Source: an uncultured delta proteobacterium (GTDB lineage: Bacteria; Desulfobacterota; Binatia; DP-6). From it: DNA of 64,000 bases. The stretch lies in assembly GCA_963815115.1 (NCBI GenBank), contig CAWFFN010000012.1, positions 448,001 to 512,000 of the forward strand, in the 5' to 3' direction. The translations under genes and the position numbers were made by a program. Of this stretch, positions 42,437 through 62,891 are shown in pieces. Every line of letters starts with the position of its first letter. Position 1 is the first letter of the stretch. The notes under the pieces were generated by a model. It was not told the origin of the DNA. It made no database searches and saw only the letters and a program-made list of their open reading frames with translations.

Positions 42437-42606
42437 CGCAGAGCGGTGGCCAGCGGCGTCGGACGGAGGTCGGCGCGACGCCGGAAGACGCGCCGCGCTC
42501 GGCCTGACCGCCGGCGGTTCCGGCAGCTCGCGCTTCTTTGCATCCGGAGCCACCTTCGCCTATAAGCTCTCGCCTTTTACCAACCCCCGCAGGAGGCCCA
42601 CCCCTG

Positions 42607-45024
<2,418 letters not shown>

Positions 45025-45065
45025 GCGGGCGGCCGCGGGCGTGCCGGCGGGCACCCCGGCGCGGG

Positions 45066-46346
45066 TCAGGCGGACGTCTTCTGGGAGCGCGGCTGCTCGT
45101 CGGCCCGCTCGTCGCGTCGTGCCACGGTGACCAGCACGGACACCACGCGGCGGCGCTGGACCTTCTCGGCGCGGAACACGAGCTCCTCGTAGCGGACCTC
45201 CTGGCCCTCCCGGGGAATGGCGCCGAGCAGGCCGATCATGAGCCCGCCGACCGTGTCCCACTCCGCACTCGGGAGCTCCACGCCCAGGAGCTCTCCGAGA
45301 TCGTGCACGGTCATCGCGCCCGCGACACGGTAGACGCCGTCGGATACCGTGACGAGCTCGGGCTCGTCGGGATCGTACTCGTCCTCGATCTCGCCGACGA
45401 GCTCCTCGAGCACGTCCTCCAGGGTGATCAGCCCCGCGACCGACCCGTACTCGTCGGTCACCAGCGCGGCGTGAAACTTCTGCCGCTGCATCTCGCGCAG
45501 CAGCTCCGCCACCTTCTTCGAGTCGGGCACGAAGTGGGCGGGACGGATCACCTGCGCGAGCGGGATGTCCTGCTGGCCCTGATGCAGCGCGCGCAACAGA
45601 TCCTTTGCGTAGACGAAGCCCTCGCAGTGGTCGAGGTTCTCGCGGTAGACCGGAACACGCGAGAACCCGTGGCGCAGCATCACGTCCTCCACGTCGTGCA
45701 GCCGCCGGCCGATCTCGACCGCCACGATGTCGGGGCGAGGCACCATCACCTCGCGCGCGACCGTGTCGCCGAAGGCAAAGATGGAGTGGATCAGCTCGCG
45801 CTCGTGAGGCTCGATGCTCCCCTCCTCGTGCCCGACCTCCGCCATGGTGCGGATGTCCTCCTCGGAGACGAACGGACCCTGCTTGAGGCCCTTGCCGGGG
45901 AGGAGCACGTTGGCGAGCCCGATGAGCGCCCGCGTCGGCACGCTGAGCATGCGGCCGAGGAAGTAGACCAGGGGCGCGAGTGCGAGGGCGGCCCGGTCGC
46001 TGTGCAGGATGCCGAACGTCTTCGCCATCGCCTCCACCACCACGAAGTAGACGATGGTGAATCCGACCGAGATGAGGGTGATGCCGAGGCTGCCGAAGTA
46101 GTACGCGGAGATGATGGCGACCAGGATGGCGGAGCCGTTCTGCACGAACATGACGCCGAGATAGACCCCGTTCAGATAGCGCGCGGGCTCGCCCGCGAGG
46201 CGCTCGAGCAGCGCCGCGTTGCGCCCGCCCTCGGCCTTGAGCGCGAGTGCCCGGACGCGGGTCATGCGGCTGAGCGAGCTCTCGGCCATCGCCAGCACGG
46301 CGCCGAAGAGCACGAGCACGACGACGACCCAGACCAACGCCGTCAT
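45066..46346 (-). CDS. CNNM/CBS/CorC (hemolysin family) protein
   Basis: N-terminal TM domain, REVMVPR, FSRVPVY, DEYG..GLITLEDVLEELVGEIEDEYD, TVGG. Confidence 0.9.
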   Translation of the reverse strand: MTALVWVVVVLVLFGAVLAMAESSLSRMTRVRALALKAEGGRNAALLERLAGEPARYLNGVYLGVMFVQNGSAILVAIISAYYFGSLGITLISVGFTIVYFVVVEAMAKTFGILHSDRAALALAPLVYFLGRMLSVPTRALIGLANVLLPGKGLKQGPFVSEEDIRTMAEVGHEEGSIEPHERELIHSIFAFGDTVAREVMVPRPDIVAVEIGRRLHDVEDVMLRHGFSRVPVYRENLDHCEGFVYAKDLLRALHQGQQDIPLAQVIRPAHFVPDSKKVAELLREMQRQKFHAALVTDEYGSVAGLITLEDVLEELVGEIEDEYDPDEPELVTVSDGVYRVAGAMTVHDLGELLGVELPSAEWDTVGGLMIGLLGAIPREGQEVRYEELVFRAEKVQRRRVVSVLVTVARRDERADEQPRSQKTSA

Positions 46347-47022: not shown

Positions 47023-48243
47023 TCATCCCGCGTCCATGCGGTATGCACGCAGCGCCGGGATCGTCGCGGCCACGATCGCGAGCACGACCAGGCACCCGAC
47101 CCCGCCGCTCACCACCGCGAACGGCGCGCTGGTGAGCGCGGCGACGAAGCCGGACTCCGCTGCGCCGAGCTGATTCGAGGCGCCGATGAAGAGCAGGTTG
47201 ACCGCGCTCACCCGGCCCCGCAGCTCGTCGGGCGTGGAGAGCTGGATGGCCGTGCTGCGCATCACCACGCTCACCTGGTCGGCGGCGCCGACCAGCATGT
47301 AGGCGGCCACCGAGAGCGGGAACCAGCGAGACAGGCCGAAGGCGATCGTGGCCAGGCCGTAGACGGCGACGCCCGCCAGCAGCGCGCGCCCCGTTCGCCG
47401 GATCGGCCGCCGCAGGACGAGGACCGCCGACGTGACCAGCGCCCCGATCTCGAGCGACGAGGTGAGCAGGCCGTACCCGCGCGGGCCTACCTGCAGGATG
47501 TCCTGCGCGAAGATCGGGAGCAGGGCTGCGGCGCCCCCGAAGACCACGGCGAACATGTCGAGCACCATGCAGCCGAGGACGACGGGACGGCGGCGCACGA
47601 AGACGAGCCCTTCGCGCATCGCGCGCAGGGACGGCGCCGCCCGCGGGCCCTCGGAGCGTCCGGGCCGGACGAAGGCGAGGGTGACGAGCGCGCCGCACAC
47701 GAGCACCACGTAGGCCGCGTAGACCGTCGCGATCCCGGCGGCCGCGATGAGCAGCCCCGCGAGGGCGGGGCCGGTGGCGAAGGCAAGCGCCTGGTTGGTG
47801 GTCGCGATGGTGACGGCGCGCGGGAAGATCTCGCGCGGCACCAGGGTCGGCAGCAGCGCCGCGCGGGAGGGGTTCTCGAAGGCGGACGCCACCGCGACCA
47901 GGAGGATGATGCCGTAGAGCAGGCGCACGGTCACGTGGCCTCCCGCCGTCGCCCACCACAGCACGCCGGCGCTCGAGAGCGCCAGCGTCTGCGCCGTCAT
48001 CATGATCCGGCGGCGATCCCACACGTCGGCCAGCGTTCCGGCGACGAGGAGCAGGCCGAGCGCCGGAATGAACTGCACGGCGCCGATGAGACCGAGGTGG
48101 AAGGCGGAGCTGGTGAGCGCGAACACGTGCCAGGCAATGCCGGCACGCAGCATCGTCATCGCGACCGCCGAGCAGAACCGGCTCGAGAGGTAGGCGACGA
48201 GGTTGCGCGACAGGACGGGCGGCGCGCCTCCATGATCGGGCAT
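47023..48243 (-). CDS. MFS transporter (EntS/H+ antiporter-like)
   Basis: GTLADVWDRRRIM, PSRAALLPTLVP, QLSTPDELRGRVSAVN. Confidence 0.9.
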   Translation of the reverse strand: MPDHGGAPPVLSRNLVAYLSSRFCSAVAMTMLRAGIAWHVFALTSSAFHLGLIGAVQFIPALGLLLVAGTLADVWDRRRIMMTAQTLALSSAGVLWWATAGGHVTVRLLYGIILLVAVASAFENPSRAALLPTLVPREIFPRAVTIATTNQALAFATGPALAGLLIAAAGIATVYAAYVVLVCGALVTLAFVRPGRSEGPRAAPSLRAMREGLVFVRRRPVVLGCMVLDMFAVVFGGAAALLPIFAQDILQVGPRGYGLLTSSLEIGALVTSAVLVLRRPIRRTGRALLAGVAVYGLATIAFGLSRWFPLSVAAYMLVGAADQVSVVMRSTAIQLSTPDELRGRVSAVNLLFIGASNQLGAAESGFVAALTSAPFAVVSGGVGCLVVLAIVAATIPALRAYRMDAG

Positions 48244-48382
48244 CGTCGGGCGCTCTTTGCCCGTGTCGTGACCCGAGTAAAGGGGGCGGCGCGGCCCGCA
48301 GTGGTTGCGGGCCGCGCACGATGCGCGTATGCGCACGGGCGATTTGACGCGAGAACGAACCCTCACGATCCGCCCCTGAGCC

Positions 48383-49441
48383 ATGTCATACGACGATGCG
48401 CTCGTGAGCCGCGTGCTCGCCGAGGCTCGCGCCGACGTCCAGGCCGAGCTCGAGCGCGTCTTCGCGCGGCGCCGGCGGACGGGCTACGGGCCGCTCTACG
48501 ACCTCCTCGCGGACTACCCGTTCCGCGAGGGCAAGGGGTTGCGGCCGGCGATCTGCTTCGCCGCCTGCCGTGCGGTGGGTGGGCTCACCGGGCAGGCGCT
48601 CCTCTCGGCCACGGCGCTCGAGCTCTTCCACAACGCCTTCCTGGTGCACGACGACGTCGAGGACGGCTCGCAGTTCCGGCGGGGCAAGGTGACGCTCTTC
48701 GAGGCGCACGGCGTCCCCGTGGCGGTGAACGTCGGCGACGCCACCAACGTCCTGGCGCTCGACCTGTTGCTGGGCAACACGACGGCCATCGGCGTGCGCA
48801 AGGCGCTTCTCGTCTTCCGCGAGGTGGAGCGCATGGCACGCGAGTCGGTCGAGGGCCAGGCGATCGAGCTGGGCTGGATCGCCGAGGGCCGCTTCGATCT
48901 CGGCGACCGCGACTACGTGCGCATGGCCTACAAGAAGACCTGCTGGTACACCGTCATCGCGCCGCTTCGCATCGGCGTCCTGTGCGGCAGCCCGCCCGGT
49001 CCGCTCGCTCCGCTTGACGAGGAGCTGACTCCCCTCCTAGACCTCGGATTCCTTGCGGGCATCGCGTTCCAGATCCACGATGACCTGCTCAACCTCGAGG
49101 CCGACGAGACGCTCTACGGCAAGGAGATCAGTGGCGACCTGTGGGAGGGCAAGCGAACCGTGATGCTGTTGCACTTCCTGCGCACGGCGAAGGGCGCCGC
49201 CCGCGCCCGGGCACTCGAGCTGCTGCGCACGCCACGGCAGCTCAAACCGGCGGGGGAGGTGAGCTGGCTGCACGCGGCGATGCGGGAGCAGGGATCGCTC
49301 GACCACGGGCGCAAGCTGGCGGTCGAGTACTCGGAGCGGGCGCTCGAGGCCGATGCCGGCGGCCCGTCGTTCTGGCGGGACACCGAGGATCGGCGCTTCC
49401 TGCGTGAGATGCTGCGGTACGTGATCGATCGCATCAAGTGA
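48383..49441 (+). CDS. Polyprenyl diphosphate synthase family protein
   Basis: GKGLRP, ELFHNAFLVHDDVED..RRG (first Asp-rich motif), GQ, KT, FQIHDDLLN, DLWEGKRT. Confidence 0.92.
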   Translation: MSYDDALVSRVLAEARADVQAELERVFARRRRTGYGPLYDLLADYPFREGKGLRPAICFAACRAVGGLTGQALLSATALELFHNAFLVHDDVEDGSQFRRGKVTLFEAHGVPVAVNVGDATNVLALDLLLGNTTAIGVRKALLVFREVERMARESVEGQAIELGWIAEGRFDLGDRDYVRMAYKKTCWYTVIAPLRIGVLCGSPPGPLAPLDEELTPLLDLGFLAGIAFQIHDDLLNLEADETLYGKEISGDLWEGKRTVMLLHFLRTAKGAARARALELLRTPRQLKPAGEVSWLHAAMREQGSLDHGRKLAVEYSERALEADAGGPSFWRDTEDRRFLREMLRYVIDRIK

Positions 49442-49452
49442 GAGGACGGCGC

Positions 49453-50013
49453 ATGCGCGTGGCCAGCGATCCCCCCGACGAGCAGCGCGGCCCCTTCACC
49501 GAGCTGCTCCGCCTGCAGAGCGAGTTCCAGGCCCGCCTGGCCGACGAGACCCTGCGCTATCTCCGCCGGCTGCAGGGGGCGTTCGCCCCGGCTGCGCCGG
49601 GAACGGTGGTCGTGCCGGACGGCGACGGCGAGCTGCGGGCGGCGGGAAGGCCGGGCGATCGGGTGGCGCTGCGGCTCGAGGCCGAGAATCGGCAGCGGGT
49701 CCACTGCCTGGTGACGCCGATGCTGACGCCGCTGGTCGAGCGCACCGGAACGACGTGGTTCCCGGCCGCGGACCCGGCTCCGACGTCCACGCTCCTCGCG
49801 CCGGGCGAGGTCGGCGCCGTGGCGGTCGATCTGGCGCTGCCCGCCGAGCTGCCGCCCGGCATCTACAAGGGTGCCCTCGTCCTGCAGGGATTCCGCGAGG
49901 GTGGCGTGCCGGTCACCGTGGAGGTCGAGGGCGAGCCGCCCGCGGCGCCAGCGCGCCGCCGTCGCGCGAGCCGCCAGCGGTCGCGGAAGGCGGTGCGGAG
50001 GCGGCGGCGATGA
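49453..50013 (+). CDS. Hypothetical protein (N-terminal helix plus Ig-like domain)
   Basis: Coupled to its neighbours; LAPGE..LPAELPPGIYKG; basic tail. Confidence 0.75.
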   Translation: MRVASDPPDEQRGPFTELLRLQSEFQARLADETLRYLRRLQGAFAPAAPGTVVVPDGDGELRAAGRPGDRVALRLEAENRQRVHCLVTPMLTPLVERTGTTWFPAADPAPTSTLLAPGEVGAVAVDLALPAELPPGIYKGALVLQGFREGGVPVTVEVEGEPPAAPARRRRASRQRSRKAVRRRRR

Positions 50014-50588
50014 GCCGTGCGCCGACGAGTGGACGGGTACGGCTGGTCGACGCGGCCGCAGGACCAGGCCGCACGACGGCCACTCTGCTGGCGTCGCTCG
50101 CGGCTCGCCTCGGAACGCTTCACTTCGTCTCGGGAACGGCCGCCGTCGGATCGATGGTCGCGGGCTTTGCTGCCCTCGGTCGCGAGGTCGGCCGCACTGT
50201 CGAGGGTGCACGACTTCGGCGGGCCCTCGAGGCGAGCCGCGCCGGGACCAACGGCGACGCGCTCTGGGGAACGCTCGCGATCGGCGACTGGTCGTCGGGT
50301 CTGCCGCCGAGTCCCATCCTCGATCACCTGCGCAACGACCTCGCGCTGCTGCTCGCCGACGACCTCGAGGACACCCTGGCGCTGCTCCCCATCCCGGGCG
50401 AGGCGGCCGGCGCCCAGGCCTCCGACGACGACCAGCCGGCCACCTTCGCCGACTGCGTGCTCGGCCTGTGGGCGTTCGCGCGCGAGATCGCGCGGTCGGT
50501 CGACGCCCTGGTGAGCGCGACGCTGCCGCCCCCGGACGCGGTGACGACCGCACCGGAGCCCGAGGGCACGGGCCCGTTGCTGCGCTGA
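50010..50588 (+). CDS. Hypothetical helical protein
   Basis: ATGA overlap with the upstream gene; 192 aa. Confidence 0.7.
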   Translation: MSRAPTSGRVRLVDAAAGPGRTTATLLASLAARLGTLHFVSGTAAVGSMVAGFAALGREVGRTVEGARLRRALEASRAGTNGDALWGTLAIGDWSSGLPPSPILDHLRNDLALLLADDLEDTLALLPIPGEAAGAQASDDDQPATFADCVLGLWAFAREIARSVDALVSATLPPPDAVTTAPEPEGTGPLLR

Positions 50589-50601
50589 CCCCGGCTCGCC
50601 C

Positions 50602-51603
50602 ATGATCCAGGCCGACGCGCTCCGACCGCCCTCGCCGCTCGACTCGAACGCCTCGGCCTACAAGGACTGGCTCCACCTGAACGTGCTGGACCACGCCTCC
50701 GGCACCGTCGGCCTGGTCAACGTCTCGCTGCACGGGGCGCCGGACGACACGCGCTCGCGCGCCATCGGGACGGCGCTCCTCCACGTGCCCGGCGTCGGGT
50801 GGGTCGGCAACGTCGAGGCGTGCGGGCAGTCCGAGGCGCGGGTGGGCGTCGGCAGCGTGGCGCTGGCGCAGGTGGCGCTGGCGCTCGACTATCCGGCCGG
50901 GCGGGCGCTCGCCTCGGCACGCTTCCCGGACGAGGCCCTCGCGCTCCGCATCGCGGCGAGCGCCCGGGCGCCGGCGATCGACCTCGAGCAGCGGCTGCCC
51001 CTCGGCCCCGGCTGGGTGTCGTGGTACATCGTGCCGCGACTGGCAGTGGAAGGCGAGGCCCTGGTCGGGCAGCGGCGAATCGACCTCGCAGGCGCCAGCG
51101 CCTATCACGATCACAACTGGGGACGCTGGCACTGGGGCGACGATCTCGGCTGGGAGTGGGCCGCGTTCCTCACGCCGGCGCCGGGCCCCGCCTTCGTGCT
51201 CTCGCGCGCCACCGATCGCGCGCACCGTCACGTGGGGAACCCGGTGCTCGTCGTGCAGGTCGGCAAACGCCGGCGGACGTTCGGCGGTCGCACCGTGGAG
51301 CTCGACTACGCGGGACGGCTCGGCGGCCGCATCCGCCGGCTGCCGGGCGCCCTCGCGGCGCTGCACCAGGATCGCGCGACCCCGTCCCTGCCCGTCCGTC
51401 TCACGGTGCGGGCGGACGACGGCCGGGACCGGGTCGAGATCGAGTTCACGGCACGCGCCGCCGCGCAGCTCATCGCCGGCGACCCCGCCGTCCGGGGCTA
51501 CGGCTTCATCCACGAGATCGTGGGCGCCTTCGCGGCCTGCGGCCGGATCGGCGATCACGACCTCGCCGGCAGTGGCCTCGCGGTGCTCGAGCATGTCGAC
51601 TGA
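50602..51603 (+). CDS. CrtC/AttH/tocopherol-cyclase-like protein (putative hydratase or cyclase)
   Basis: YKDWLH, W..VPRLAVEG, AYHDHNWG..W..GWEW. Confidence 0.7.
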   Translation: MIQADALRPPSPLDSNASAYKDWLHLNVLDHASGTVGLVNVSLHGAPDDTRSRAIGTALLHVPGVGWVGNVEACGQSEARVGVGSVALAQVALALDYPAGRALASARFPDEALALRIAASARAPAIDLEQRLPLGPGWVSWYIVPRLAVEGEALVGQRRIDLAGASAYHDHNWGRWHWGDDLGWEWAAFLTPAPGPAFVLSRATDRAHRHVGNPVLVVQVGKRRRTFGGRTVELDYAGRLGGRIRRLPGALAALHQDRATPSLPVRLTVRADDGRDRVEIEFTARAAAQLIAGDPAVRGYGFIHEIVGAFAACGRIGDHDLAGSGLAVLEHVD

Positions 51604-52162
51604 TCCAGCCCTGCCGGCCGGGCCGCGGTCGCTCGGAGGGTACGTCGCCGCGCTGATCGACGAGCTCGGTAGAGGGGACCGCGAGGCACTGGAGCGCATG
51701 CGAGGCATCGTCGGCCGCCGGCGCGCGCGCATCGCACTCGACGGCGAGGTCGTCGACGTGGCGTTCGGGCACGATGGGATCGCCGTCGTGCCGGCGACGG
51801 GCGGAGCCGTCGACGGGGAAGGCGCAACCGATCGCCCGACCGTGCTCGGCCTCCTCGACGGTCACCTCGAGGTGACGGATGCGATCCTCGACGGCAGGCT
51901 CCACGTCCGCGGCACCACCGACGCCGTGGTCCGCATCTTCACCGCGATCGAGATACTGCTCGACGCCTCACCCCGCCTGCCGGCGCTCCAGCGGCTGTCG
52001 TCACACTTCCGTGCGAGCCTCCCCCGCCTGCCCCGCGCCGAGCCGATCGCCGGAGCGCCGGTGCGGCGCGCCGCCTGGTTCCCGGAGGAGCGGGCGGCGA
52101 GCGAGGACGCGGTGCTCGCGCGTCACGGCTTGCTGCCCGAGCCCGGCGACGGGGCGGCGTAG
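51593..52162 (+). CDS. SCP2 sterol/lipid-binding domain protein
   Basis: LLDGHLEVTDAILDGRLHVRG matches the SCP2 C-terminal pattern. Confidence 0.75.
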   Translation: MSTDPALPAGPRSLGGYVAALIDELGRGDREALERMRGIVGRRRARIALDGEVVDVAFGHDGIAVVPATGGAVDGEGATDRPTVLGLLDGHLEVTDAILDGRLHVRGTTDAVVRIFTAIEILLDASPRLPALQRLSSHFRASLPRLPRAEPIAGAPVRRAAWFPEERAASEDAVLARHGLLPEPGDGAA

Positions 52163-52221
52163 GTTGACGCTGTCCATGGCCGGTGCGATGATCTCGTGCA
52201 CCTGACCGGCCGGAGGAAGTC

Positions 52222-52671
52222 ATGGGCGTCCCATCGACACTCCACATCGACATCTCCCACCTGCCCAACGTGGCGGTCACCGGCATCGGGCCCATCGGAT
52301 CCGTCGGACCGGTGACCGTCGCCGGAATCCCGGACCACTTCCACATCAGCATCGACAAGCTGCCGGACACGATCCCGAAGATCCAGCTCGGGATCGATCC
52401 CCTCGAAGTGAAGCCGCTGTCGATCGCGCTGTCGGTGAAGGAGATGCCCTCGATCCGGGGCCATCTCCCGGCGGACTTCACCGTCGGGCTGTCGCTGCTC
52501 GGCCTCGAGCTGCTGTGCGTGCGCCTGTGCGGCGAGGCCCAGATCATCACCGAGCCCTACCAGCCGAATCCATGCGAGCGCTGTGGCGAGACGTTGCGAC
52601 CCGTGCCGCTCCCTCCTCCGGTGGCAACGGTGCCGGGGGGTGACGCGGGCACGAGGCGCGGCCGGAGCTGA
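52222..52671 (+). CDS. Hypothetical beta-rich protein with C-terminal Cys motifs
   Basis: RBS GGAGG; Ile/Pro-rich; CVRLCGEAQ and PNPCERCG. Confidence 0.75.
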   Translation: MGVPSTLHIDISHLPNVAVTGIGPIGSVGPVTVAGIPDHFHISIDKLPDTIPKIQLGIDPLEVKPLSIALSVKEMPSIRGHLPADFTVGLSLLGLELLCVRLCGEAQIITEPYQPNPCERCGETLRPVPLPPPVATVPGGDAGTRRGRS

Positions 52672-52674
52672 GCA

Positions 52675-53406
52675 GTGGCTGCGGTTTCGGACCGCTCGTC
52701 TGCCGTCCGCCTCCGGGGACACCCCGGCGGCCTGGCAGGACATCTCGTCTGGCCCGAGGTCGGACCGCAGCTGGTCACGGTGCAGCTGGCCCTCGGCGAG
52801 CCCAAGGAGACGCCGGTGGTCGCACACGTCCTGCCCGTCGGCGGCAAGGGACTGTGCAGCCTGGAGATCACCCTCCCCACCTGGACACCGCCGGGCAGCT
52901 ACCAGGGCACGGTGCGCGTCGGCGACGAGGAGCGTCGCATCGTGGTCGACGTCGAGCCGCGAGCGCGGCTGCAGGTCGCGCCGCGCCTGCTCTCCCTGCG
53001 AGGGCGCCCGAAGGACAGGGTGCAGGCGGAGGTGCAGCTCTCGAATGTCGGCAACGTGGCGACGGAGGTGCGAGGCGCCTACCTCTTCGCGCTCTACGAC
53101 CCGTCGACGCTCGAGCGTGCCACCGCGCGCGCGTTCGTGTCCGGGGGAACGACGAGTCTCGAGTTCGGCGACGAGATGGTCGCAGGGCTCCGGGAGGGAT
53201 TCGCCGGCATGGTGCGGCTCAAGGTGGATGCGGGCGCAGGGCCGCTCGAGCCGGGGGACGGCCGATCGCTCCAGGTCACCCTGCATCTTCCGGAGGGGCT
53301 GCGATCGGGGCAGACGTACGAGGGGACCTGGCGGATCGACAGCCTGGGCTACAACATCGAGGTGGAGGCCGCAGACGGCACGGCTCCCGAGGAGACGCCG
53401 AGATGA
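52675..53406 (+). CDS. Hypothetical protein with tandem Ig-like domains
   Basis: LPTWTPPGSYQG and LEPGD..LPEGLRSGQTYEG; starts 3 nt after the upstream stop. Confidence 0.75.
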   Translation: MAAVSDRSSAVRLRGHPGGLAGHLVWPEVGPQLVTVQLALGEPKETPVVAHVLPVGGKGLCSLEITLPTWTPPGSYQGTVRVGDEERRIVVDVEPRARLQVAPRLLSLRGRPKDRVQAEVQLSNVGNVATEVRGAYLFALYDPSTLERATARAFVSGGTTSLEFGDEMVAGLREGFAGMVRLKVDAGAGPLEPGDGRSLQVTLHLPEGLRSGQTYEGTWRIDSLGYNIEVEAADGTAPEETPR

Positions 53407-54045
53407 ACGGATCGCAGAGCGACAACCCGCTGGCGGGCATCTCCCAGCTGTTCACCGATCTGATCGACCAAGGCGTGCGCATGGGGTCCGACATCCTCGA
53501 CTCGCTGGGCAGCGGGCCTCTCGGCCAGCTCGCCGGGTCGATGCAGAAGATGCAGATGCCGTCCCCGCCGAAGCGCTGCGGCTGCGACATCCCGCCCCCG
53601 TGCTGGATGCCGAAGCCGCTCGGCGATCTCACCAGCCACGTCTGCCCCGGTGGAGCGGCCACCCTCCGGTTTCTGGTGACGAACTGCGGGCTCACGCCGC
53701 GTGTCGTGCACGTGCAGGCGACCGGCGCCTCGGCTGGCAAGGTGACGATCACGCCGGCCACGGCGACCATCGAGCCGTTCGAGCAGGTCGCCTTCGTGGC
53801 CTCGCTGGCGGTGCCCGCGGACGCGAGCGAGTGCCAGGCGGAGCACGTGCTCCTGTGGGTCCGGGGCTGTCACCTCCACTACCTCCGCTGGGCGGTCGAC
53901 GTCCGCTCGCGGGGCGGCCACGCGTGCCACGAGATCTGCGTCCAGGACTGCCCGGGATCTGGTGCATCACTGGTACGATCACTTCTACTGTCCGCGCCCG
54001 TGTCCGCACGAGCAGCAGCAGACGCCCGGGCGGACCCATGGCTGA
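53403..54045 (+). CDS. Cys/His-rich hypothetical protein with Ig-like domain (1-nt frameshift near 53955)
   Basis: ATGA overlap; CGCDIPPPCW. Removing one G gives DCPDLVHHWYDHFYCPRPC..HG* with a stop overlapping the next gene start. Confidence 0.7.
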
Positions 54046-54625
54046 TCCGGTCGGGCTCGACCAGGCCATGCGCCGGGCCCTCGAGGCCAACGCGCGCTAC
54101 TACGAGGCGCTCGGGCAGGTGACGGCCGACTACCTGAAGAGCCTTCTCGGCGTGCTCGGTGAGCTGCGCCTGCCGGCGCGCTTCGACGTGCAGGGGGCGT
54201 CGCCCGCGGCGCCTGCAGCGCCGCCGGCTCCGGCGCCCGCGATGGTGCTGGAGGCTGCCACCGGGGACGACGCGGCCGGTGCGTTCATGGTCCAGAACCG
54301 CCTGACGCAGAAGGTCGCGGCCCCGGTGGTGGCGTCGGCGTTTCTCGATCCGTCGGGGAACGAGGCGCGGCCCATACTCGCCTTCGATCCCGACGTCGTC
54401 GCGCTCGACCCTGGCGAGCAGATCCTGGTGCGCGTCACGGCCCGTGTCGACGACCGCCTCGAGCCGGGCGTCGCCTATCGCGGCGAGGTGACCATCCCCG
54501 GGCTCTCGGGCGATCGCATCCAGCTCGTGGTCCGCCGCCGTGCCGCCGCCAACGGCGGCGACGGCGCCGCGCCGCCCAGGCGGCGGCGCAAGGGGCACGG
54601 GCGCCGCGCCACGCGCGCGCGCTGA
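54038..54625 (+). CDS. Hypothetical protein, paralog-like to 49453-50013
   Basis: MADPVGLDQAMRRALEANARYY; LDPGEQ..LEPGVAYRG; basic tail. Confidence 0.75.
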   Translation: MADPVGLDQAMRRALEANARYYEALGQVTADYLKSLLGVLGELRLPARFDVQGASPAAPAAPPAPAPAMVLEAATGDDAAGAFMVQNRLTQKVAAPVVASAFLDPSGNEARPILAFDPDVVALDPGEQILVRVTARVDDRLEPGVAYRGEVTIPGLSGDRIQLVVRRRAAANGGDGAAPPRRRRKGHGRRATRAR

Positions 54626-55470
54626 TGGCGCACGCCCCGCCGGGCGACCCGTCCGCGGGCGTCCTCGTCGGCGCCATGTGGTCGTATGCCGCGACCGTGC
54701 TGCAGCCGGCCCAGGCGCTGAAGCGCGCGGGGCTGCTGCCGGGGCTCGGGCGCCAGGGCGATCTTCCCCAGCCGAGCGATCGCCCCGGCCTCGGCCCGCG
54801 CTTCGCTCCCCGACATCCCACGCCCGTGCTGCTCGGCCGCGCCACCGAGCACGACCACCTCGTCGACGAGTTCGACCGCATGGCCGAGGTGTACGAGGCC
54901 TACGTGCAGCCCTTCTCCGGCCCGATCTTCGACGAGGCAATCGTCGAGATGCGCGCCTTCCTGCGCCCCGACTCGCGCGTGCTCGACGCCGGGTGCGGTG
55001 CGGGCCGCGAGCTCAGGCGGGTGGCGCGTCTCGTGCCCGCCGGCGAGGTGGTCGGGATCGATCTCGCGGCCGGAATGGTGCGCGCCGCCCACGGCGCCGC
55101 GCGGGCGTCGGGGCTCGACCACTGCGCCTTCTTCCAGGCCGACGTGGGCGAGTTGCCGGCGGAGTTCACCGGCGCCTTCGACCTGGTCTACAGCTCGCTC
55201 GCGCATCATCACTATCCCGACCCGCCTGCCGCAGCGGCCAGCGTGCTGCGCGTGCTGCGCCCGGGCGGCATCTCCTGCGTCGTCGATCCCGGCCCGGAGT
55301 GGTACACGCGGCTGAGCGCACCCATCGCCCGCTGGGCCGATCCGGGCTGGATTGGCTTCCACACCCCCGAGGCCTTCCAGGCGCTCTTCCGCGACGCGGG
55401 CTTCGCGCGCGCGGGATGGATCGATCTGCTGCCCGGCTTCGGGCTTGCGGTGGGGCAGAAGAGCTTCTGA
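54625..55470 (+). CDS. Class I SAM-dependent methyltransferase
   Basis: VLDAGCGAG, GIDLAAGM, FDLV, LRVLRPGG; TGATG overlap. Confidence 0.9.
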   Translation: MAHAPPGDPSAGVLVGAMWSYAATVLQPAQALKRAGLLPGLGRQGDLPQPSDRPGLGPRFAPRHPTPVLLGRATEHDHLVDEFDRMAEVYEAYVQPFSGPIFDEAIVEMRAFLRPDSRVLDAGCGAGRELRRVARLVPAGEVVGIDLAAGMVRAAHGAARASGLDHCAFFQADVGELPAEFTGAFDLVYSSLAHHHYPDPPAAAASVLRVLRPGGISCVVDPGPEWYTRLSAPIARWADPGWIGFHTPEAFQALFRDAGFARAGWIDLLPGFGLAVGQKSF

Positions 55471-55488
55471 ACGTCCCGGGCGGGCTGC

Positions 55489-56637
55489 TCACGCCAGCCG
55501 GGGCTTCAGGCGCCACCGGATCAGCGCCAGCAGGCCGGCGAAGATGGCGAGGAGCGCGATGCAGGGCACGACGACGTCTGCGAAGCCCGCTCCCCGGGTC
55601 ACCAGCCGGCGAAGCGCGATCTGGTACCAGCGCAGCGGGAGCACGTCGCCGAGGAGGCGCAGCGGCGGCGGCATCAGCTCGTAGGGCAGCATGACGCCCG
55701 AGAGCACGAACGACGGCAGGATGAAGAACACGGTGATGAAGACGGCCTGTGCCGAGGTGCGTGCCAGCGCGGACACCAGGACCCCGATGGCGAGCGAGGC
55801 CAGCATGAAGGGCAGCGTGACGACGAGGAGCCCGAGCCAGCTTCCCTGCGGCCAGAGGCCGAACCCGAGCCCGCAGGCCAGCGTGGTGAAGGCGAGCAGC
55901 GCGTAGCCCACCCCCACCAGGGGCAGCAGCTTGCCGAGCACGATCTCGAGGGTCGTGATGGGAAGCGAGAGCGTCTGCTCGAATGTGCCGCTCTCGCGCT
56001 CGCCCACGATGCCGAGCGAGGACGAGCTCAGGCACAGGTTGGTGAGCAGCATGCCTAGGAGCCCGGCGAGGAAGAAGTTGCGATCCAGAAGGGTCGGGTT
56101 GAACCAGAAGCGCTGCCGCACGTCGATCGGCCCGGCCGCCCTCGCCATCGGGACGATGCCTTCGCGCCGAGGCGGCGCGTCCCCGAGGGAGAAGCCCGTC
56201 GCGACCTGGCTCACGATGCCGGCGACGCGGGCGGCCGTGATCGGGTCGGTTCCATCGAGCAGCAGCTGCACCTGCGGCCTGCCACGCTCGATGTCGCGCG
56301 CGAAGTCCCGCGGGATGACCAGCACCGCCACCGTCGAACCCCGCTGGAGCCTCGCCCGTGCCTCGGTGTAGCTCAGCAGGCGCTCCGGCTGCCGGAAGTA
56401 GCCGGTCGTCTGCATGTCCTCGATCAGACGGCGTGATGCCGCGCTCTCGGTACGGTCGATGATCGCCCAGGGTACGTTGGCGGGCTTGAAGGAGATGCCC
56501 AGCCCGTAGAGCAGGAGGAGCACGATCGGCTGGAACATCACCGAGAGGATGAAGCCCATGTCGTGGCGCAGCACCAGGGTCTGGCGATAGGCCACCGCGA
56601 GCATGTTGGAGACCGCCTGAGTCAGCCGCCCGCTCAT
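55489..56637 (-). CDS. ABC-2 permease (YbhR/S-like)
   Basis: ERESGTFEQ, EIVLGKLLP, periplasmic loop with LLLDGTD. Confidence 0.9.
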   Translation of the reverse strand: MSGRLTQAVSNMLAVAYRQTLVLRHDMGFILSVMFQPIVLLLLYGLGISFKPANVPWAIIDRTESAASRRLIEDMQTTGYFRQPERLLSYTEARARLQRGSTVAVLVIPRDFARDIERGRPQVQLLLDGTDPITAARVAGIVSQVATGFSLGDAPPRREGIVPMARAAGPIDVRQRFWFNPTLLDRNFFLAGLLGMLLTNLCLSSSSLGIVGERESGTFEQTLSLPITTLEIVLGKLLPLVGVGYALLAFTTLACGLGFGLWPQGSWLGLLVVTLPFMLASLAIGVLVSALARTSAQAVFITVFFILPSFVLSGVMLPYELMPPPLRLLGDVLPLRWYQIALRRLVTRGAGFADVVVPCIALLAIFAGLLALIRWRLKPRLA

Positions 56638-57740
56638 TCGCGTGCCTCCAGCGTGCGCAGCGCCAGCACCACCAGCACGGCGGCGAAGAGGCCGAGGATC
56701 AGCAGCTCGGGGAGGAGCGCGAGCGGCCCTTCACCGCGCAGGTAGATGCCGCGGCTGACGCGGATGTAGTGGGTGGCGGGAAACGCGAGGGCGAGCCAGC
56801 GCAGGACGGTGGGCATGTTGCCGATCGGGAACGAGAACCCGCTCAGCTGGACCAGCGGGACGCTGAACAGCACCGTGCGTTGCACGGCCTCGGCGGGAGT
56901 GGTGGAGGTGGCGGAGAAGATGAGACCGAGCGACAGCGAGACGAGCAGGTAGAAGTTCGACACCAGGATGAAGAAGAGGGCACTGCCAGCCGGCCACACG
57001 CCGAACGCGAAGCCGGCGACCAGCATCATCAGCACCACGTCGAGCGCGAAGATCGCCCCCAGCGGCATGAGCTTGCCGAGGAGGATCTCGAGCGCCGTGG
57101 CGGGCGTCACCTGGAGCTGGTCGAAGGTGCCGGCTTGTCGCTCGTTGACGATGGTCACCGCGGTGATGAGCGTGGTGAGGAACGAGAGCACGAAGCCGAA
57201 GACGCCGGCCACCATGTACGGCGTGCCGTCGAGCCGCGGGTTGAAGAGAACGGCGCTGACCACCGAGACGCCCCCCGCCGCGGTCGGCTCGCGCACCAGC
57301 CGCGCGCCGCTCGCGCCGACGAGGCCGCCGAGGGCACCCTCCGCGTTGCCCGCCAGCAGGGCCTCCGCGCCGTCGTAGAGGAGCTGGACCTCCGGCGGTT
57401 CCCGCCGCTGGCGCAGGGTGCGCGAGAAGTCGGGCGGGATGACCAGCGCCGCGCTCACCGTCCCGCCGCGCAGGCCGCGGTCGATCGCGTCGCGGGACGC
57501 GATGGACACGGGCACGAACCACTTGCTGGCGGCGATGTCCGCGACCAGCCGCCGGCTCTCCGGCGAGCCGTCGGCGTCGAGAACCGCCAGGCGCAACCCG
57601 TGCACCTCGGTCGAGAGCGAGAAGCTGAACGCCAGCAGGGCGACGAGCGGCACCGTGATCAGGATCGTCACGGTGAAGGTGTCGCGGAAGGTGGCGCGCA
57701 CCTCGCGGCGGATGAGCGTGAGGAGGCGGCGCGCGCTCAT
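56634..57740 (-). CDS. ABC-2 permease (YbhS/R-like)
   Basis: ERQAGTFDQLQVTP, LSGFSFPIGNMP. Confidence 0.9.
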   Translation of the reverse strand: MSARRLLTLIRREVRATFRDTFTVTILITVPLVALLAFSFSLSTEVHGLRLAVLDADGSPESRRLVADIAASKWFVPVSIASRDAIDRGLRGGTVSAALVIPPDFSRTLRQRREPPEVQLLYDGAEALLAGNAEGALGGLVGASGARLVREPTAAGGVSVVSAVLFNPRLDGTPYMVAGVFGFVLSFLTTLITAVTIVNERQAGTFDQLQVTPATALEILLGKLMPLGAIFALDVVLMMLVAGFAFGVWPAGSALFFILVSNFYLLVSLSLGLIFSATSTTPAEAVQRTVLFSVPLVQLSGFSFPIGNMPTVLRWLALAFPATHYIRVSRGIYLRGEGPLALLPELLILGLFAAVLVVLALRTLEARE

Positions 57741-58668
57741 GCCGGCCGCTCCACGGTCGCGAGCACTCGGCGGAAGACCTCCGTCATCGGGGTCTCCTTG
57801 ATGCGCACGGTGGCGCCCGGAACGGTCCGGGCGATCCCGCCGAGTCGATCGAGCGCGGGGCGGTCAAGCACCCGAAGGGCGAGGGTCACGCCCTCGGGCG
57901 TCTCCGTGACGGCCGCGCCGAGCTCCCCCAGCCGTTCGAGCACCTGCGCGCGAGCTGCCGGCGCGGCCGTGACGTCGATCCGGAAGGCGTCGGACAGACG
58001 GCCCCGCAGGTCGGCCGGCGATGCATCGGCCACGAGTCGTCCGGCGTCGATGAGCGAGACCCAGTCGCAGTAGTCGACCTCCTCGAGGAAGTGGGTGGTG
58101 ACGAAGACGGTGACGCCGGCGGCGGCCTCGTCCTGGATCGCCTCCCAGAAGCGCCCGCGGTTGCGCACGTCGACGCCCGCAGTCGGCTCGTCCAGGAAGA
58201 GGACGCGCGGAGAGTGCAGCATGCTGAGCGCCAGCCCGGCGCGCTGGCGGATCGCGGCCGGCAGGTTCTCGGGACGCTCGTCCTCGGCATCGGCGAGAGC
58301 GAAGCGCTCGCGCAGTTCGCCCCAGCGGCGCTCGAGCGGCTCGCCTTCGAGCCCGAACAGGCCAGCATAGAACTCGACGTTCTCGCGCAGCGAGAGCCCC
58401 TGATACAGGCTCACCTTCTGTCCCATGTAGCCGATGCGGTCGCGCACCCGCCGGGGCCGCTTGATGACGTCGATGCCGTCGACCTCGATCGAGCCGGCGG
58501 TGGGGCGCAGCAGGCCGATCAGCATGCGGATGGTCGTGCTCTTGCCCGAGCCATTGCCGCCCAGGAAGGCGAAGATGCTGCCCGGCTCGACCGCGATGCT
58601 CAGGTCGTCGACGGCGGTGAAATCGCCGAAGCGCTTGGTGAGCCCGGCGGTCCGGATGATCGGATCGC

Positions 58669-58672
<4 letters not shown>
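57737..58672 (-). CDS. ABC transporter ATP-binding protein
   Basis: GGNGSGKST, FLDEPTAGVD, TTH; degenerate signature LPAAIRQR. Confidence 0.92.
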
Positions 58673-59585
<913 letters not shown>

Positions 59586-59589
<4 letters not shown>

Positions 59590-60605
59590 GCGCCGCTCCG
59601 CTCGTCCACCAGGTACACGTTGCCCTCCGTGCCGGGCTGGAAGCGCTCCACGCCCTCGAGGATGCGAACCTTGGCCCGGTACACCTGCCCGAGCCGGTCG
59701 CTGCGCGTCTCGATCTTCTCCGGCGTGAAGTTGGCCGTGTCGGCCACGAAGCTCACCTCGCCGGGCACGCGGCGGCCGGGCTCGCTGTCGAGCTCGATCT
59801 GCACCTTCCGGCCGACGCGGAAGCGGTCGATGTCGGCCACCGGCACGTACACCTGGACGTACTTGTCGGTGGGATCGAGCACCGAGACGATGGAGGTGCC
59901 GGGCTGTGCCAGCTCGCCGGCCCAGATCAGCTGCGTCTGCACGACGGTGGGGACGTCCGGCGACCGGATGGTGAACTTGGTCAGCATCGCCTCGAGCTCG
60001 GTGAGCTGCGCCGCGGTCATGTCGCGCTGCTGCTGCAGGACGTCGCGCTGCTGTCGTGCCAGGCTGATGGTGCGCTCCTCGGCGTCGGCCCGGCCGAGGA
60101 GCTCGCGCGTGCGCTGGAGGGCGCTGCGCGCCTGATCGCGCGCGGCGCGCATGTCGTCGAGCTGCTGGGCGGTGCTCGCGCCCGTACGGACGAGATCCTG
60201 CTCGCGGGCGAAGGTCCGCTCCGCGCGCTCGGCCGTCGCCGCGGCCTCCCGCACCTCCGCCTCGCGGGCGCTGCGGTCGCGCTTCCAGGTGGCGCCGGTG
60301 AGCGTGATCTGCTCCTCCTGCCTCCGGATCTGGGCGTCGATCGAGGCCACCTCGGCGCGCTTAGCCGCCACGCGCGCAGCCACCTCCCGATCGTCGAGCC
60401 TGGCCACGATCGTGCCCGCCGGCACGGTGTCGCCCTCCCGGTACGGGACCTCGAGCACGCGGCCAGTGACCTCGCTGCGGATCACGCGCTCCTCGCCCTC
60501 GACGAAGCCGGTGTAGTGCACCGGGCCGTGATCGGTGCGGAACCACCAGACCGCCGCTCCGACGGCGGCGAGTACGGCGAGGATGATCGGTATCCGCTTG
60601 GACAT
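59586..60605 (-). CDS. HlyD-family membrane fusion protein (YbhG-like)
   Basis: N-terminal TM helix, lipoyl-like GRVLEV..EGD, coiled coil, ANFTPEKIET. Confidence 0.9.
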
Positions 60606-60609
60606 TGCG

Positions 60610-62067
60610 CTACCTCGTAACGGTCGCGAGGGCTTCCAGCGGAAGGCCCATCAGCTCCTGCAGCTCGGCGCGTCGCGTGTGAGCCTGATAGAGGGCGGTG
60701 GCGAGGGTGGCGCGCTGCCGGGTCAGCAGGAGCTGGGCATCGAGGACGTCCTCGCTGGTGGCGCGGCCGGCGTCGAACTGCTGCTGGCGGATACGCAGGT
60801 TCTCCTCGGCCTGGCCGACGGCTCCGCGGGCGGTGTCGAGCGCCGAGAGACGCTCGGCGGCCGCGCGCTGCGTCTCGCGGATCGCGCTCTCCAGCTCGCG
60901 CAGCTCGCGCTCGATGGCGAGGCGGTTGCGATCGGCCTGGATGCGCGCCTCGGCGAGCTGCGCCTCGCGCCGGCCATCGGTGCCGAGGTCCCACGAGAAG
61001 CCGACGAAGGCGGAGCCCAGGCCTTGCGGCTGCAGGATCTTCTCGCTGGTCCAGTCGGCGGCTCCGCCAGCCTCGAAGCGGGGAAGGCGGCTGCGGGCGA
61101 GGGCCGCGGCCGTGTCCTCGAGCCGTTGCTGCTCCTCCAGCAGGGAGAGGAGGACGGGGTTGTTGGCGAAGGCATCGCGTAGCGCGTCCTCGACGGCGGG
61201 AAGCTGGGGACGCTCGCCGACGTCCACCACCGTCGTCGGCGCGTCCACCGGCCGGCCGGTGGCCTCGTTGAGGGCCCAGCGGGCCCGGTCGATGTCGAGC
61301 TCGCGCTGCCGCAGCTCCTGCTCGGCGTCCTGCAGCTTCACCTGCACGACCAGCAGCTCGTTCTTCGTGAGACGGCCGCTGTCGTAGCGCTGCTGGGCGT
61401 TGGCCAGCTGGGTCCTGTCGGTTGCGATGTCCTGCTGCACGACGCCGCGCAGCCGCTGGGCCTCGAGGACGTCGAAGTAGGCGCGGATGACGGCGACCTT
61501 CTGCTCGAGGCTGGTCGCCCAGGCCCGCGCCCGCTCGCCCCGGTACCCGGCCTGCGCCGCCGTGAGCGTCTTCCAGACCTGTCCGGTCACGTCGAGGGGG
61601 ACGGTGGCGGTGCCGTTGACGCGGCCCGACTGCTGCTCGCGGATGACGAAGCTCGGGTTGGTGACCCCGGGAAAGGTGCCCGCCGGCAGCGCCACCGCGT
61701 TGCGCAGCTCCGACGTGTACCAGGTGTAGCGGCCCGACCCCGTCGTCGCCGGCAGCAGCTTGCCGCGGGTATCGCGCACGCGTGCGGCGGCGGCGTCGAC
61801 GCCGTGCTCGGACTCGGCGATGCGCCGATTGCCCGTGGTCGCGAGCGCGAGGGCGTCGGTGAGCGACAGCGGTGTGGTCACGTCCTCGGGCGTCGCCGGG
61901 GGCGCCTCGGGATCGAGCGCCACCGCCGCCGCGGTGGCGCGGCGGGCGAGCTCCTGGTTGCGGCGCTCGGGACTCCACCCGCCGTTGCCCTCGGGACGGG
62001 TCAGGACGTGTGCCGCCCCGCAGGCGCTTGCCAGGACCAGCAGCACGAGCCACGCCTCAGCGCGCAT
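60610..62067 (-). CDS. TolC-family outer membrane efflux lipoprotein
   Basis: Lipobox LASACG; two OEP repeats (AYFDVL.., FDAGRATSEDVLDAQ). Confidence 0.9.
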   Translation of the reverse strand: MRAEAWLVLLVLASACGAAHVLTRPEGNGGWSPERRNQELARRATAAAVALDPEAPPATPEDVTTPLSLTDALALATTGNRRIAESEHGVDAAAARVRDTRGKLLPATTGSGRYTWYTSELRNAVALPAGTFPGVTNPSFVIREQQSGRVNGTATVPLDVTGQVWKTLTAAQAGYRGERARAWATSLEQKVAVIRAYFDVLEAQRLRGVVQQDIATDRTQLANAQQRYDSGRLTKNELLVVQVKLQDAEQELRQRELDIDRARWALNEATGRPVDAPTTVVDVGERPQLPAVEDALRDAFANNPVLLSLLEEQQRLEDTAAALARSRLPRFEAGGAADWTSEKILQPQGLGSAFVGFSWDLGTDGRREAQLAEARIQADRNRLAIERELRELESAIRETQRAAAERLSALDTARGAVGQAEENLRIRQQQFDAGRATSEDVLDAQLLLTRQRATLATALYQAHTRRAELQELMGLPLEALATVTR

Positions 62068-62731: not shown

Positions 62732-62742
62732 GAACGAATGTT

Positions 62743-62767: not shown

Positions 62768-62891
62768 GCCGTCGTCGGGTCCAGCATCCGCTGCGGTCAC
62801 TGTGACTAGGCACGTGCCTCTGGTAAGAGACGCGCTCGACGTGGACCTCACACCGCCGCGACGTCGTGCGCACGAGCGGCCAGGCGCGCAC

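Follow-up and report, generated by a model that had tools for sequence, protein, structure and literature searches.

A ten-gene operon of an uncultured Binatia bacterium combines isoprenoid enzymes with a conserved four-protein core that may form a scaffold or coat for a hydrophobic product

We analyzed a 64,000-nucleotide (nt) stretch of DNA from an uncultured delta proteobacterium of the Binatia lineage DP-6 (assembly GCA_963815115.1, contig CAWFFN010000012.1, positions 448,001 to 512,000; the whole stretch is called the window here), which harbors an operon of ten genes, g1 to g10, at positions 48383 to 55470 (Table 1). Since the G+C content of the window, about 70%, makes raw lists of open reading frames (ORFs) noisy, genes were called from a frame plot of G+C at third codon positions (GC3) together with the ORF translations. 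The GC3 plot favored a single frame at a time over the entire region, giving ten consecutive, co-oriented genes on the + strand, as the initial annotation had described them. The junctions are overlaps, mostly of 4 to 11 nt, or gaps of at most 13 nt, the sole exception being the 59 nt that separate g5 from g6. The absence of signal peptides and membrane regions, also part of that annotation, was borne out by a hydropathy scan, in which no 19-residue stretch of the ten proteins was transmembrane-like or signal-like and the maximum, 1.69, fell in a hairpin of g6. On the basis of the comparisons below, the ten genes are a real, horizontally mobile operon composed of two modules, an isoprenoid module (g1 to g5 and g10) and a core (g6 to g9). 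The reading of the operon as one ten-gene pathway thus holds as far as the linkage of the genes is concerned but not as to its unity, since the core also occurs with another module or with a polyhydroxyalkanoate (PHA) synthase, and the isoprenoid module also occurs without g6 to g8.

Table 1. Genes of the operon and the promoter-like site within it, in window positions (aa, amino acids)
Feature	Position	Strand	Description
g1	48383..49441	+	trans-polyprenyl diphosphate synthase, geranylgeranyl diphosphate (GGPP)-synthase-like, 352 aa
g2	49438..50013	+	g9 paralogue; N-terminal amphipathic helix, beta-sandwich, Arg-rich tail; 191 aa
g3	50010..50588	+	conserved protein, no fold assigned; 192 aa
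g4	50602..51603	+	new family, distant kin of CrtC / tocopherol cyclase / DUF2804; 333 aa; YHDHNWGRWHWG motif
g5	51593..52162	+	SCP2-like lipid-carrier candidate, 189 aa; alternative GTG start 51572
promoter-like match TTGACG-17-GATGAT	52164..52192	+	sigma-70-like consensus match between g5 and g6; a GGAGGA ribosome-binding site and then g6 come after it
g6	52222..52671	+	small core protein, 149 aa; variable N-terminal repeats, hydrophobic beta-hairpin (residues 79-109), PNPCERCG
g7	52675..53406	+	core protein of beta-sandwich domains, 243 aa
g8	53403..54045	+	core protein, frameshifted; N-terminal helical hairpin, MSP/PapD/ASH-like beta-sandwich, Cys/His-rich tail (..DCPD..HHWYDHFYC.RPC)
g9	54038..54625	+	core protein of 195 aa; helix at the N terminus, beta-sandwich, low-complexity basic tail
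g10	54625..55470	+	class I S-adenosylmethionine (SAM)-dependent methyltransferase, UbiE/COQ5-like, 281 aa

The isoprenoid module opens with g1, one of four genes of the Pfam family polyprenyl_synt (PF00348) in the host genome, which scores well above the gathering threshold of that family (3e-45, 154.8 bits against a cut-off of 27). Its Asp-rich motifs DDVED and DDLLN, already pointed out in the initial annotation, are kept as DD(V/I)ED and DD(L/V)LN in 27 of 27 copies examined from loci with the same module (type I, see below; window included), and a second motif of the form DDxxN is found in bona fide GGPP synthases. The nearest solved chain was 1wmw, a geranylgeranyl diphosphate synthetase (4.3e-56; runner-up, 7.7e-29), and in NCBIfam g1 reached 133 bits with GGPP_syn (cut-off 500) and 147 bits with IdsA (cut-off 468). 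By its nearest solved relative, g1 looks like a GGPP-type (C20) prenyl diphosphate synthase. Assignment to the cargo polyprenyl transferases of Family 2 encapsulins (NF041169) was rejected, the score of 153 bits being far under the cut-off of 450. No squalene/phytoene synthase, desaturase, or UbiA prenyltransferase is encoded in the window, as had been noted before; the three SQS_PSY and two UbiA copies of the host genome are all on other contigs.

For g4 and g5, previously called a CrtC/AttH-like enzyme and an SCP2 lipid carrier, we recovered distant relationships of these kinds, but both proteins remained below the Pfam cut-offs. The YHDHNWG motif of g4 is present; the window protein itself had no Pfam match, so that the gathering cut-off of CrtC/AttH (PF07143), 22.5 bits, was not reached. 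Within the g4 family, which comprises 649 representatives at 50% identity, sub-threshold Pfam matches were to DUF2804 in 7 and to CrtC in 2 of 23 members, while 36 distant homologues gave, again all sub-threshold, Tocopherol_cycl in 4 (best 7.5e-5), CrtC in 2, and DUF2804 in 1. The CrtC matches in both sets had E values of about 0.003 to 0.004; in bits, those of the distant homologues amounted to 18.5 and 18.6. The family profile also matched PDB entry 7a0q, a "CrtC domain-containing protein," although weakly (E of 0.12 over 115 positions, including the Trp-rich motif). As to g5, its match to SCP2 (PF02036) had an E value of 0.033 and 15 bits, below the gathering cut-off of 21.3, and 10 of 21 members of its family matched SCP2 at E values up to 1 (best, 7e-4); a distant kinship of g5 to SCP2 is likely on these profile matches. 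Fusions to an SCP2 domain occurred in three of the 36 distant homologues of g4 (23.1, 22.2, and 19.7 bits, two of them above the cut-off), and they support g4 and g5 as a putative lipid-handling pair of enzyme and carrier.

The remaining proteins of the module are g10, g2, and g3. The methyltransferase g10 matched Methyltransf_25 (1.1e-21, 77.8 bits), Methyltransf_11 (5.9e-20, 72.2 bits), and Ubie_methyltran (5.8e-11, 42.6 bits), all above cut-off. No Pfam, NCBIfam, PADLOC, or solved-structure match was obtained for g2, and hhalign identified it as a paralogue of g9 (probability 97.9%, E of 3.3e-13). Depending on the count, g3 is carried by 24 to 27 of the loci described below; the window protein had no Pfam match, neither a PDB profile search nor the ESM Atlas gave a usable one, and 6 of 23 members of its family showed sub-threshold matches to Roadblock/LC7 (best E of 0.008). 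The possibility that g3, or a small helical protein found in other loci, acts as the small subunit of a heteromeric synthase was rejected, given a mutual hhalign probability of 0.5% and no family support.

None of the core proteins g6 to g9 matched a Pfam or NCBIfam family above cut-off, a solved-structure family in profile searches, or an enzyme family; PDB profile searches with g6, g7, and g9, as well as with g3 and g5, returned nothing significant. PADLOC gave only a generic match of the g10 methyltransferase (mad2) and three weak matches to proteins of the second module type (type II, see below), none of them specific. In a large protein collection, g6 had 590 homologues at E values of at most 0.001, all "hypothetical" or unnamed and none with a Pfam domain, and in the ESM Atlas it matched solely clusters of unnamed "hypothetical protein." Its C-terminal 75 residues are 55 to 70% identical across phyla, with H81, C103, C118, and C121 among the invariant residues. 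The AlphaFold2 (AF2) model of g6 had a mean confidence (pLDDT) of 65, rising to 80 to 91 over the long hairpin, which holds the most hydrophobic 19-mer among the ten proteins; the repeat-bearing N terminus was disordered. This monomer model is mostly disordered, and a fold search with it against the PDB found no chain with a Z score of 2 or more. A role of g6 as the precursor of a ribosomally synthesized and post-translationally modified peptide was discarded, since its conserved part is 75 residues long and it is the most conserved protein of the cluster.

The other three core proteins are related to each other. The profile of g8 matched that of g9 with a probability of 95%, and the C-terminal part of g7 matched the g9 profile with a probability of 91.4% (E of 8.9e-7). 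In Pfam, the g7 family gave only generic sub-threshold β-sandwich matches, such as NPCBM_assoc in 9 of 47 members, and no enzyme family; the sole trace for g9 was fn3_5 at an E value of 0.079. By profile comparison, a single predicted β-sandwich domain is common to g2, g8, g9, and the C-terminal half of g7, and g7 to g9 are three paralogues. The AF2 model of the g8 orthologue of locus L003 had a pLDDT of 82, exceeding 95 over the sandwich; it consists of an N-terminal helical hairpin, the sandwich, and a poorly modeled Cys/His tail. Foldseek placed Caf1M, PapD, and HYDIN at the top (E of 1e-5 to 1e-4, probability 1.0), and VIA-align gave Z scores of 8 to 10 over about 95 residues, reaching about 10 with the MSP domain of VAP-A, the ASH domains of HYDIN and the central pair, and WxLIP, at 8 to 19% identity. 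The modeled sandwich of g8 is thus of the PapD/MSP/ASH type. A complex prediction of g7, g8 (from L003), and g9 with g6 as partner scored 0.03 and was used as evidence in neither direction.

A pattern scan with one genome per species yielded 76 loci encoding a g6 relative, in genomes labeled Acidobacteriota, Gemmatimonadota, Actinomycetota (including cultured Cellulomonas), Fidelibacterota, Dormibacterota, Binatota, Eisenbacteria, and Proteobacteria, more than eight phyla in total. By tblastn with the window proteins, g6 was matched in all 76 loci, g7 in 75, g8 in 72, g9 in 71, and g1 in 58, and the remaining proteins in about a third: g2 in 28 (including one cross-match on g9), g3, g4, and g10 in 27 each, and g5 in 25. 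All ten proteins were matched in 23 of the 76 loci, so that the co-occurrence which the initial annotation had anticipated is found in other genomes. Neighbor families were then defined by clustering all ORFs from 75 loci and the window. The order of g6 to g9 is kept, with overlapping junctions, in 66 of the 75 clustered loci, and two mutually exclusive accessory sets lie beside the core. Type I (28 loci and the window) consists of g1 to g5 and g10, in the order g1-g5-core-g10 or core-g10-g1-g5; g10, present in 27 of the 76 loci, is without exception accompanied by type I genes. Type II (39 loci) comprises a 314-aa polyprenyl synthase, whose nearest solved kin are nona- and octaprenyl synthases (1e-17) and whose two Asp-rich motifs are intact, a 510-aa flavin adenine dinucleotide (FAD) protein with a weak match to the catalytic domain of geranylgeranyl reductase (GGR), and a 120-aa helical protein with a basic tail; the idea that this small protein is a copy of the N-terminal helix of g9, for which the probability was 46%, was not adopted. 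Neither set was found in eight loci, five of which are short contigs.

To the 49 loci with complete 16-kb flanks we could apply a stricter count: 46 of them (21 type I and 25 type II) have a polyprenyl synthase beside the core, and 3 have neither set. No further neighbor family was common to at least eight loci. A metagenome scan with the g8 profile added 384 stretches; among the 35 kept loci of at least 5 kb, 14 were type I, 13 type II, and 3 type II with PhaC, 2 had only a convergent methyltransferase and an epimerase-methyltransferase fusion, and 3 had nothing recognizable. These figures bring the idea that the isoprenoid genes and g6 to g9 are unrelated and merely co-transcribed close to refutation, since the pairing of core and synthase recurs in both of the unrelated module types, in either of two gene orders, and across more than eight phyla, and since g2, from the isoprenoid module, is paralogous to g9, from the core. 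What speaks for such an incidental adjacency is that each module is also found alone (the core in L052 and L072, the isoprenoid module without g6 to g8 in genome G037) and that a promoter-like site lies between the two.

The distribution of the core is rare and patchy: it was found in 3 of 61 relatives of the window genome, all of one genus, while the order around locus L059 contributed a single positive genome out of 301. A tblastn search of a plasmid collection gave no g6 match. On a tree of g8, the module types cluster strongly, with 0 of 500 shuffles requiring as few changes, and type I may have a single origin despite spanning at least six phylum labels. This combination of a wide taxonomic span and clustering on the g8 tree points to horizontal spread among soil bacteria. 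In two metagenome loci, L097 (7579-10976) and L099 (8919-11760), a core without a polyprenyl synthase is accompanied by a convergent UbiE-like methyltransferase and a 620- to 650-aa epimerase/reductase-methyltransferase fusion. Close by in L097 lie, in addition, a sulfotransferase-like ORF and an integrase.

Some loci link the core to a different polymerizing enzyme. In L059, labeled Acetobacteraceae, fully flanked and devoid of either accessory set, a gene for the PHA synthase PhaC (PF07167, 3.5e-52) directly follows g9 in the same orientation. In L114, a co-oriented PhaC gene (6e-58) directly precedes g6 and type II genes follow the core, and tblastn revealed the same PhaC arrangement in L109 and L115; these three loci probably represent one lineage, their assemblies being related. 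Conversely, genome G037, of the same class as the window genome and without g6, carries a row consisting of a synthase that shares 49% identity with g1, a sandwich protein similar to g9 (E of 2e-8), a g4 homologue (4.5e-39), and a g5 homologue (8e-12). Judging from this row, a g9-like putative adaptor travels with the isoprenoid enzymes. Because the core occurs with other modules or alone, and the G037 module occurs without g6 to g8, both modules are separable units. In the G037 row (locus L165, G037:C3:157000-176000), these genes are followed by one for a 1257-aa protein (11004-14777) whose N-terminal tail is rich in Lys/Arg and which has a Rossmann motif (GxGxxG); this protein may substitute for g6 to g9 in that genome.

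The expression signals differ between the two modules. The sigma-70-like match in front of g6 is the sole promoter-like match in 47900-55800, where shuffled sequences gave a mean of 0.1. Over 20 loci, g5 and g6 are separated by a median of 58.5 nt, compared to medians of -8 to +3 nt for the junctions inside g6 to g9. Shine-Dalgarno pairing is strongest in g6 (median of -8.5 kcal/mol, 73 loci) and g8 (-8.1 kcal/mol) and weakest in the enzymes (medians across loci of -3.0 kcal/mol for both g1 and g10), a pattern that fits abundant core proteins and scarcer enzymes.

From the apparently nonenzymatic core, its obligatory-looking linkage to a synthase, the putative enzymes tailoring double bonds, and the candidate lipid-carrier partner, we infer, at a probability of roughly 0.4, that the core is a cytoplasmic scaffold or coat which holds the hydrophobic product of the neighboring synthase as a protein-bound deposit. 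The isoprenoid module would make and tailor an isoprenoid, starting from the GGPP-type synthase; g4 would probably protonate a C=C bond of it, leading to hydration or cyclization, in cooperation with the SCP2-like carrier g5, and g10 would tailor it further by methylation. The small and presumably abundant g6 would self-assemble through its hydrophobic β-hairpin or sit with it at an oil/water interface, the sandwich proteins g7 to g9 would serve as adaptors between synthase and deposit, g2 would be a g9-like adaptor, and the basic tails could, by analogy with phasin systems, tether the assembly to DNA, to polyanions, or to an acidic membrane. The cargo would be an isoprenoid here and a polyester in a few other bacteria, kept in either case as a protein-bound deposit. 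In favor of a scaffold or coat are the conserved order of the core, the linkage to a synthase in 46 of 49 loci, the adjacency to PhaC, the lack of an enzyme signature in g6 to g9, the common sandwich, the hairpin and the conservation of g6, the Shine-Dalgarno and promoter signals, the tails and helices, and the g4-SCP2 fusions.

Several observations weigh against this proposal. The synthase g1 looks like a C20 enzyme, and a GGPP-type diphosphate product is amphipathic and not an oil; of the enzymes by which a neutral lipid would arise (a phosphatase, a head-to-head synthase, or a terpene cyclase), the cluster encodes none. Many conserved Cys and His residues in g6 and g8 could be catalytic metal centers rather than structural, amphipathic helices and β-sandwiches are common in ordinary soluble complexes, and no phasin, oleosin-like, or gas-vesicle family was matched in Pfam or NCBIfam. 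Adjacency to PhaC is rare (four loci, probably two lineages), the host genome has no PhaC_N match, and in L052 and L072 no synthase lies within 8 kb of the core. Finally, the Shine-Dalgarno values hinge on the start codons chosen in the analysis.

The possible metal centers of the core lead to a conceivable, if rather doubtful, alternative, namely, that g6 to g9 form a new multisubunit and perhaps metal-dependent enzyme or channeling complex acting on a polyprenyl diphosphate, the outcome being a small terpenoid or a modified membrane isoprenoid and no deposit. About ten Cys/His positions are conserved in g8, including the nearly invariant DCPD..HHWYDHFYC.RPC, and these would add to the four invariant residues of g6 named above. 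The tie of the core to synthases and to two kinds of double-bond modifiers (CrtC-like with a methyltransferase, or GGR-like reductase), the GGPP-type g1, which suits a small-molecule pathway, and the sporadic cross-phylum spread, which resembles that of biosynthetic gene clusters, are all consistent with such a complex. However, no catalytic family or fold was detected in g6 to g9, three of these four proteins are MSP/PapD-like sandwiches paralogous to one another, with a fold whose known roles are chiefly in binding and assembly, and the same core adjoins PhaC, whose substrate chemistry is unrelated. The isoprenoid enzymes, moreover, occur also without g6 to g8.

Basic tails and amphipathic helices recur in the operon and its relatives. 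Lys/Arg/Ala/Pro-rich C termini are present in many g9 proteins, in some g2 proteins, and in the small helical proteins of the type II module; among the g9 homologues listed, 16 of 23 have at least 10 K+R in their last 40 residues, and the tail of the window's g2 has 14. The basic tail is absent from about a third of the g9 homologues. Among the g9 tails of L041 and L044 and the small helical proteins of L011-L032, several tails are Ala/Lys/Pro-rich repeats that resemble the DNA-binding tails of the histone H1-like type, with KKAAKKKAA runs in L044. Both g2 and g8 start with amphipathic helices of high hydrophobic moment, that of g2 (0.68) being attained by 2.4% of shuffles. Such tails and helices could be the anchors of a peripheral membrane machine on the inner face of the cytoplasmic membrane, in which sandwich and SCP2 proteins would work as lipid-transfer modules. 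This machine would adjust the properties of the membrane by inserting tailored isoprenoid lipids, either hydrated and methylated or saturated. The fusion of an SCP2-like carrier to g4 in some relatives and the closeness of the g8 fold to the MSP domains of VAP proteins, which work at lipid-transfer contact sites, are in line with this model, and polyprenyl diphosphates partition to membranes. We nevertheless consider it unlikely, since the cluster has neither a conserved membrane protein nor a conserved UbiA-type transferase, and since the model leaves both the PhaC linkage and the extreme conservation of g6 unexplained.

The cysteines of g6 allow yet another explanation, a lipidation of g6 itself. 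A conserved Cys of the PNPCERCG motif would be prenylated with the geranylgeranyl group made by g1, the sandwiches would shield the lipid in the manner of RhoGDI or PDE-delta, and the methyltransferase would finish the modification. There is precedent for the elements of this scheme, as the ComX peptide is prenylated by an enzyme of the polyprenyl_synt family, ComQ, and the Ig-like sandwich of RhoGDI accommodates geranylgeranyl. The operon offers a GGPP-type synthase and several Ig-like sandwiches, and the invariant C118 and C121 form a CxxC beside a variable tail. This motif is internal, however, and not C-terminal, and H81, C103, and the CxxC could just as well make up a structural zinc site. 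The operon proteins matched no family of protein prenyltransferases, the scores of g1 are those of an ordinary GGPP synthase, and type II loci have a long-chain-like synthase and no methyltransferase. Taken together, these points make lipidation of g6 very improbable.

We compared the proposed scaffold or coat with known systems. Basic tails are the means by which PhaF, PhaM, and MLDS attach granules of lipid or polyester to DNA. The core resembles PHA granules (carbonosomes) in that nonenzymatic proteins are encoded beside a polymerizing synthase, in its amphipathic helices and Lys/Arg/Ala/Pro-rich tails, and in its position directly beside PhaC in L059 and L114. According to PMC7590123, PhaF is located on the PHA granule surface and interacts with the nucleoid. 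In contrast to phasins, which are all-helical, the core is β-rich, its usual partner is a polyprenyl synthase, and neither g2 nor g6 to g9 matched a phasin family of Pfam or NCBIfam at E values up to 0.1. Plastoglobules are the compartment in which the tocopherol cyclase VTE1 resides. They and cyanoglobules share with our operon the combination of prenyl-lipid-tailoring enzymes with structural proteins, and relatives of g4 touch Tocopherol_cycl below threshold. Both are prenyl-lipid droplets with fibrillins, tocopherol cyclase, and methyltransferases; the comparison draws on PMC12223511. The operon differs from them in that no fibrillin/PAP match was obtained, g4 stays under the Pfam cut-offs, and the cluster has no aromatic head-group pathway or UbiA prenyltransferase.

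A CrtC-like protein and a SAM methyltransferase beside a GGPP synthase also recall the tailoring of acyclic carotenoids by CrtC and CrtF, i.e., hydration followed by O-methylation. In contrast to that pathway, no phytoene synthase or desaturase is encoded in the window, g4 is below the CrtC cut-off, and g10 is a UbiE/COQ5-like class I enzyme with 14 Pfam matches, among which Methyltransf_2, which we take to be the methyltransferase family of CrtF, is absent. The β-sandwich of g8 is shared with PapD chaperones and with MSP and ASH domains, but g8 has an additional N-terminal helical hairpin and a Cys/His-rich tail. Unlike the periplasmic chaperones of chaperone-usher systems, the core proteins have no hydrophobic N terminus, and no usher or pilin genes are conserved nearby; as they have no signal peptide, we place the core sandwich proteins in the cytoplasm.

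The gas-vesicle protein GvpA is a small, conserved wall protein centered on a hydrophobic β-hairpin. As a functional analogy only, g6 is likewise small and unusually conserved, has a hydrophobic β-hairpin, and is encoded together with accessory proteins; it differs in its CxxC and N-terminal repeats, did not match the GvpA family, and is not accompanied by gvp genes. Extending the analogy, g6 to g9 would build a kind of bacterial inclusion not seen before, shelled or scaffolded by protein and filled with a hydrophobic polymer or lipid, in which g6 forms a GvpA-like wall, three MSP/PapD-like proteins act as adaptors, histone-like tails act as tethers, and a resident synthase, polyprenyl in this operon and PHA in other bacteria, loads the cargo, here a hydrated and methylated isoprenoid; in this degree of detail, the proposal is doubtful. 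More generally, we hypothesize by analogy that the core works most like the granule-associated sets (phasins, PhaF, PhaM, and fibrillins), yet it matched none of their families in Pfam or NCBIfam. The initial annotation had called the system undescribed, and within the searches made the unassigned proteins indeed matched no characterized pathway, Pfam or NCBIfam family, PADLOC system, or paper; for the literature, no description of the cluster was found by full-text keyword search, which cannot prove absence from print.

The reading frame of g8 required a correction. Comparison of the DNA with L002 and L003 revealed one extra G in the run at 53954-53956, which severs g8 from the most conserved motif of its family (HHWYDHFYC) and from the overlap with the start of g9. 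Without frame correction, the ORF continues to 54122, whereas the corrected gene stops at 54045, overlapping the beginning of g9, an arrangement that other loci show too. The motif containing HHWYDHFYC lies in a single frame in 39 of the 40 g8 homologues listed, the exception being L010, another long-contig metagenome-assembled genome, whose own g8 has a similar frame break. Public contigs over 53300-54700 do not span the frameshift site. The extra G may be a homopolymer assembly error or a real lesion.

Downstream of the operon, a complete set of efflux genes on the - strand (55489-62893) converges on it, beginning 18 nt past g10 and comprising two ABC-2 permeases, two ABC ATPases, an HlyD-type adaptor, an OEP/TolC-like channel, and a TetR/CecR-like regulator. 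Export of the product by this set or by the flanking MFS gene, which had been raised as a speculation, was not upheld: they are ordinary efflux genes, and because they are not conserved beside the cluster elsewhere, we consider them to be outside the system. Farther upstream, 42001-46000 is a patch of lower G+C (0.66 versus about 0.71) with a predicted 740-aa ORF on the - strand (42577-44799), which overlaps + strand ORFs and matched no Pfam family at an E value of 1e-5.

No described family accounts for seven of the ten proteins, the four of the core among them; the enzymes are members of known families or their distant kin. We rate the core as lying outside the known kinds of systems and its function as hypothetical. 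Among its carriers are the cultured, nonpathogenic bacteria Cellulomonas humilata ATCC 25174, Cellulomonas sp. Root930, and C. alba. Should the core prove to be a scaffold or coat, it would represent a new type of bacterial inclusion and could be employed as it stands to sequester terpenoids or polyesters in engineered cells; should it prove to be an enzyme complex, it would define new isoprenoid chemistry. Either way, a set of widespread "hypothetical proteins" becomes a concrete, testable system.

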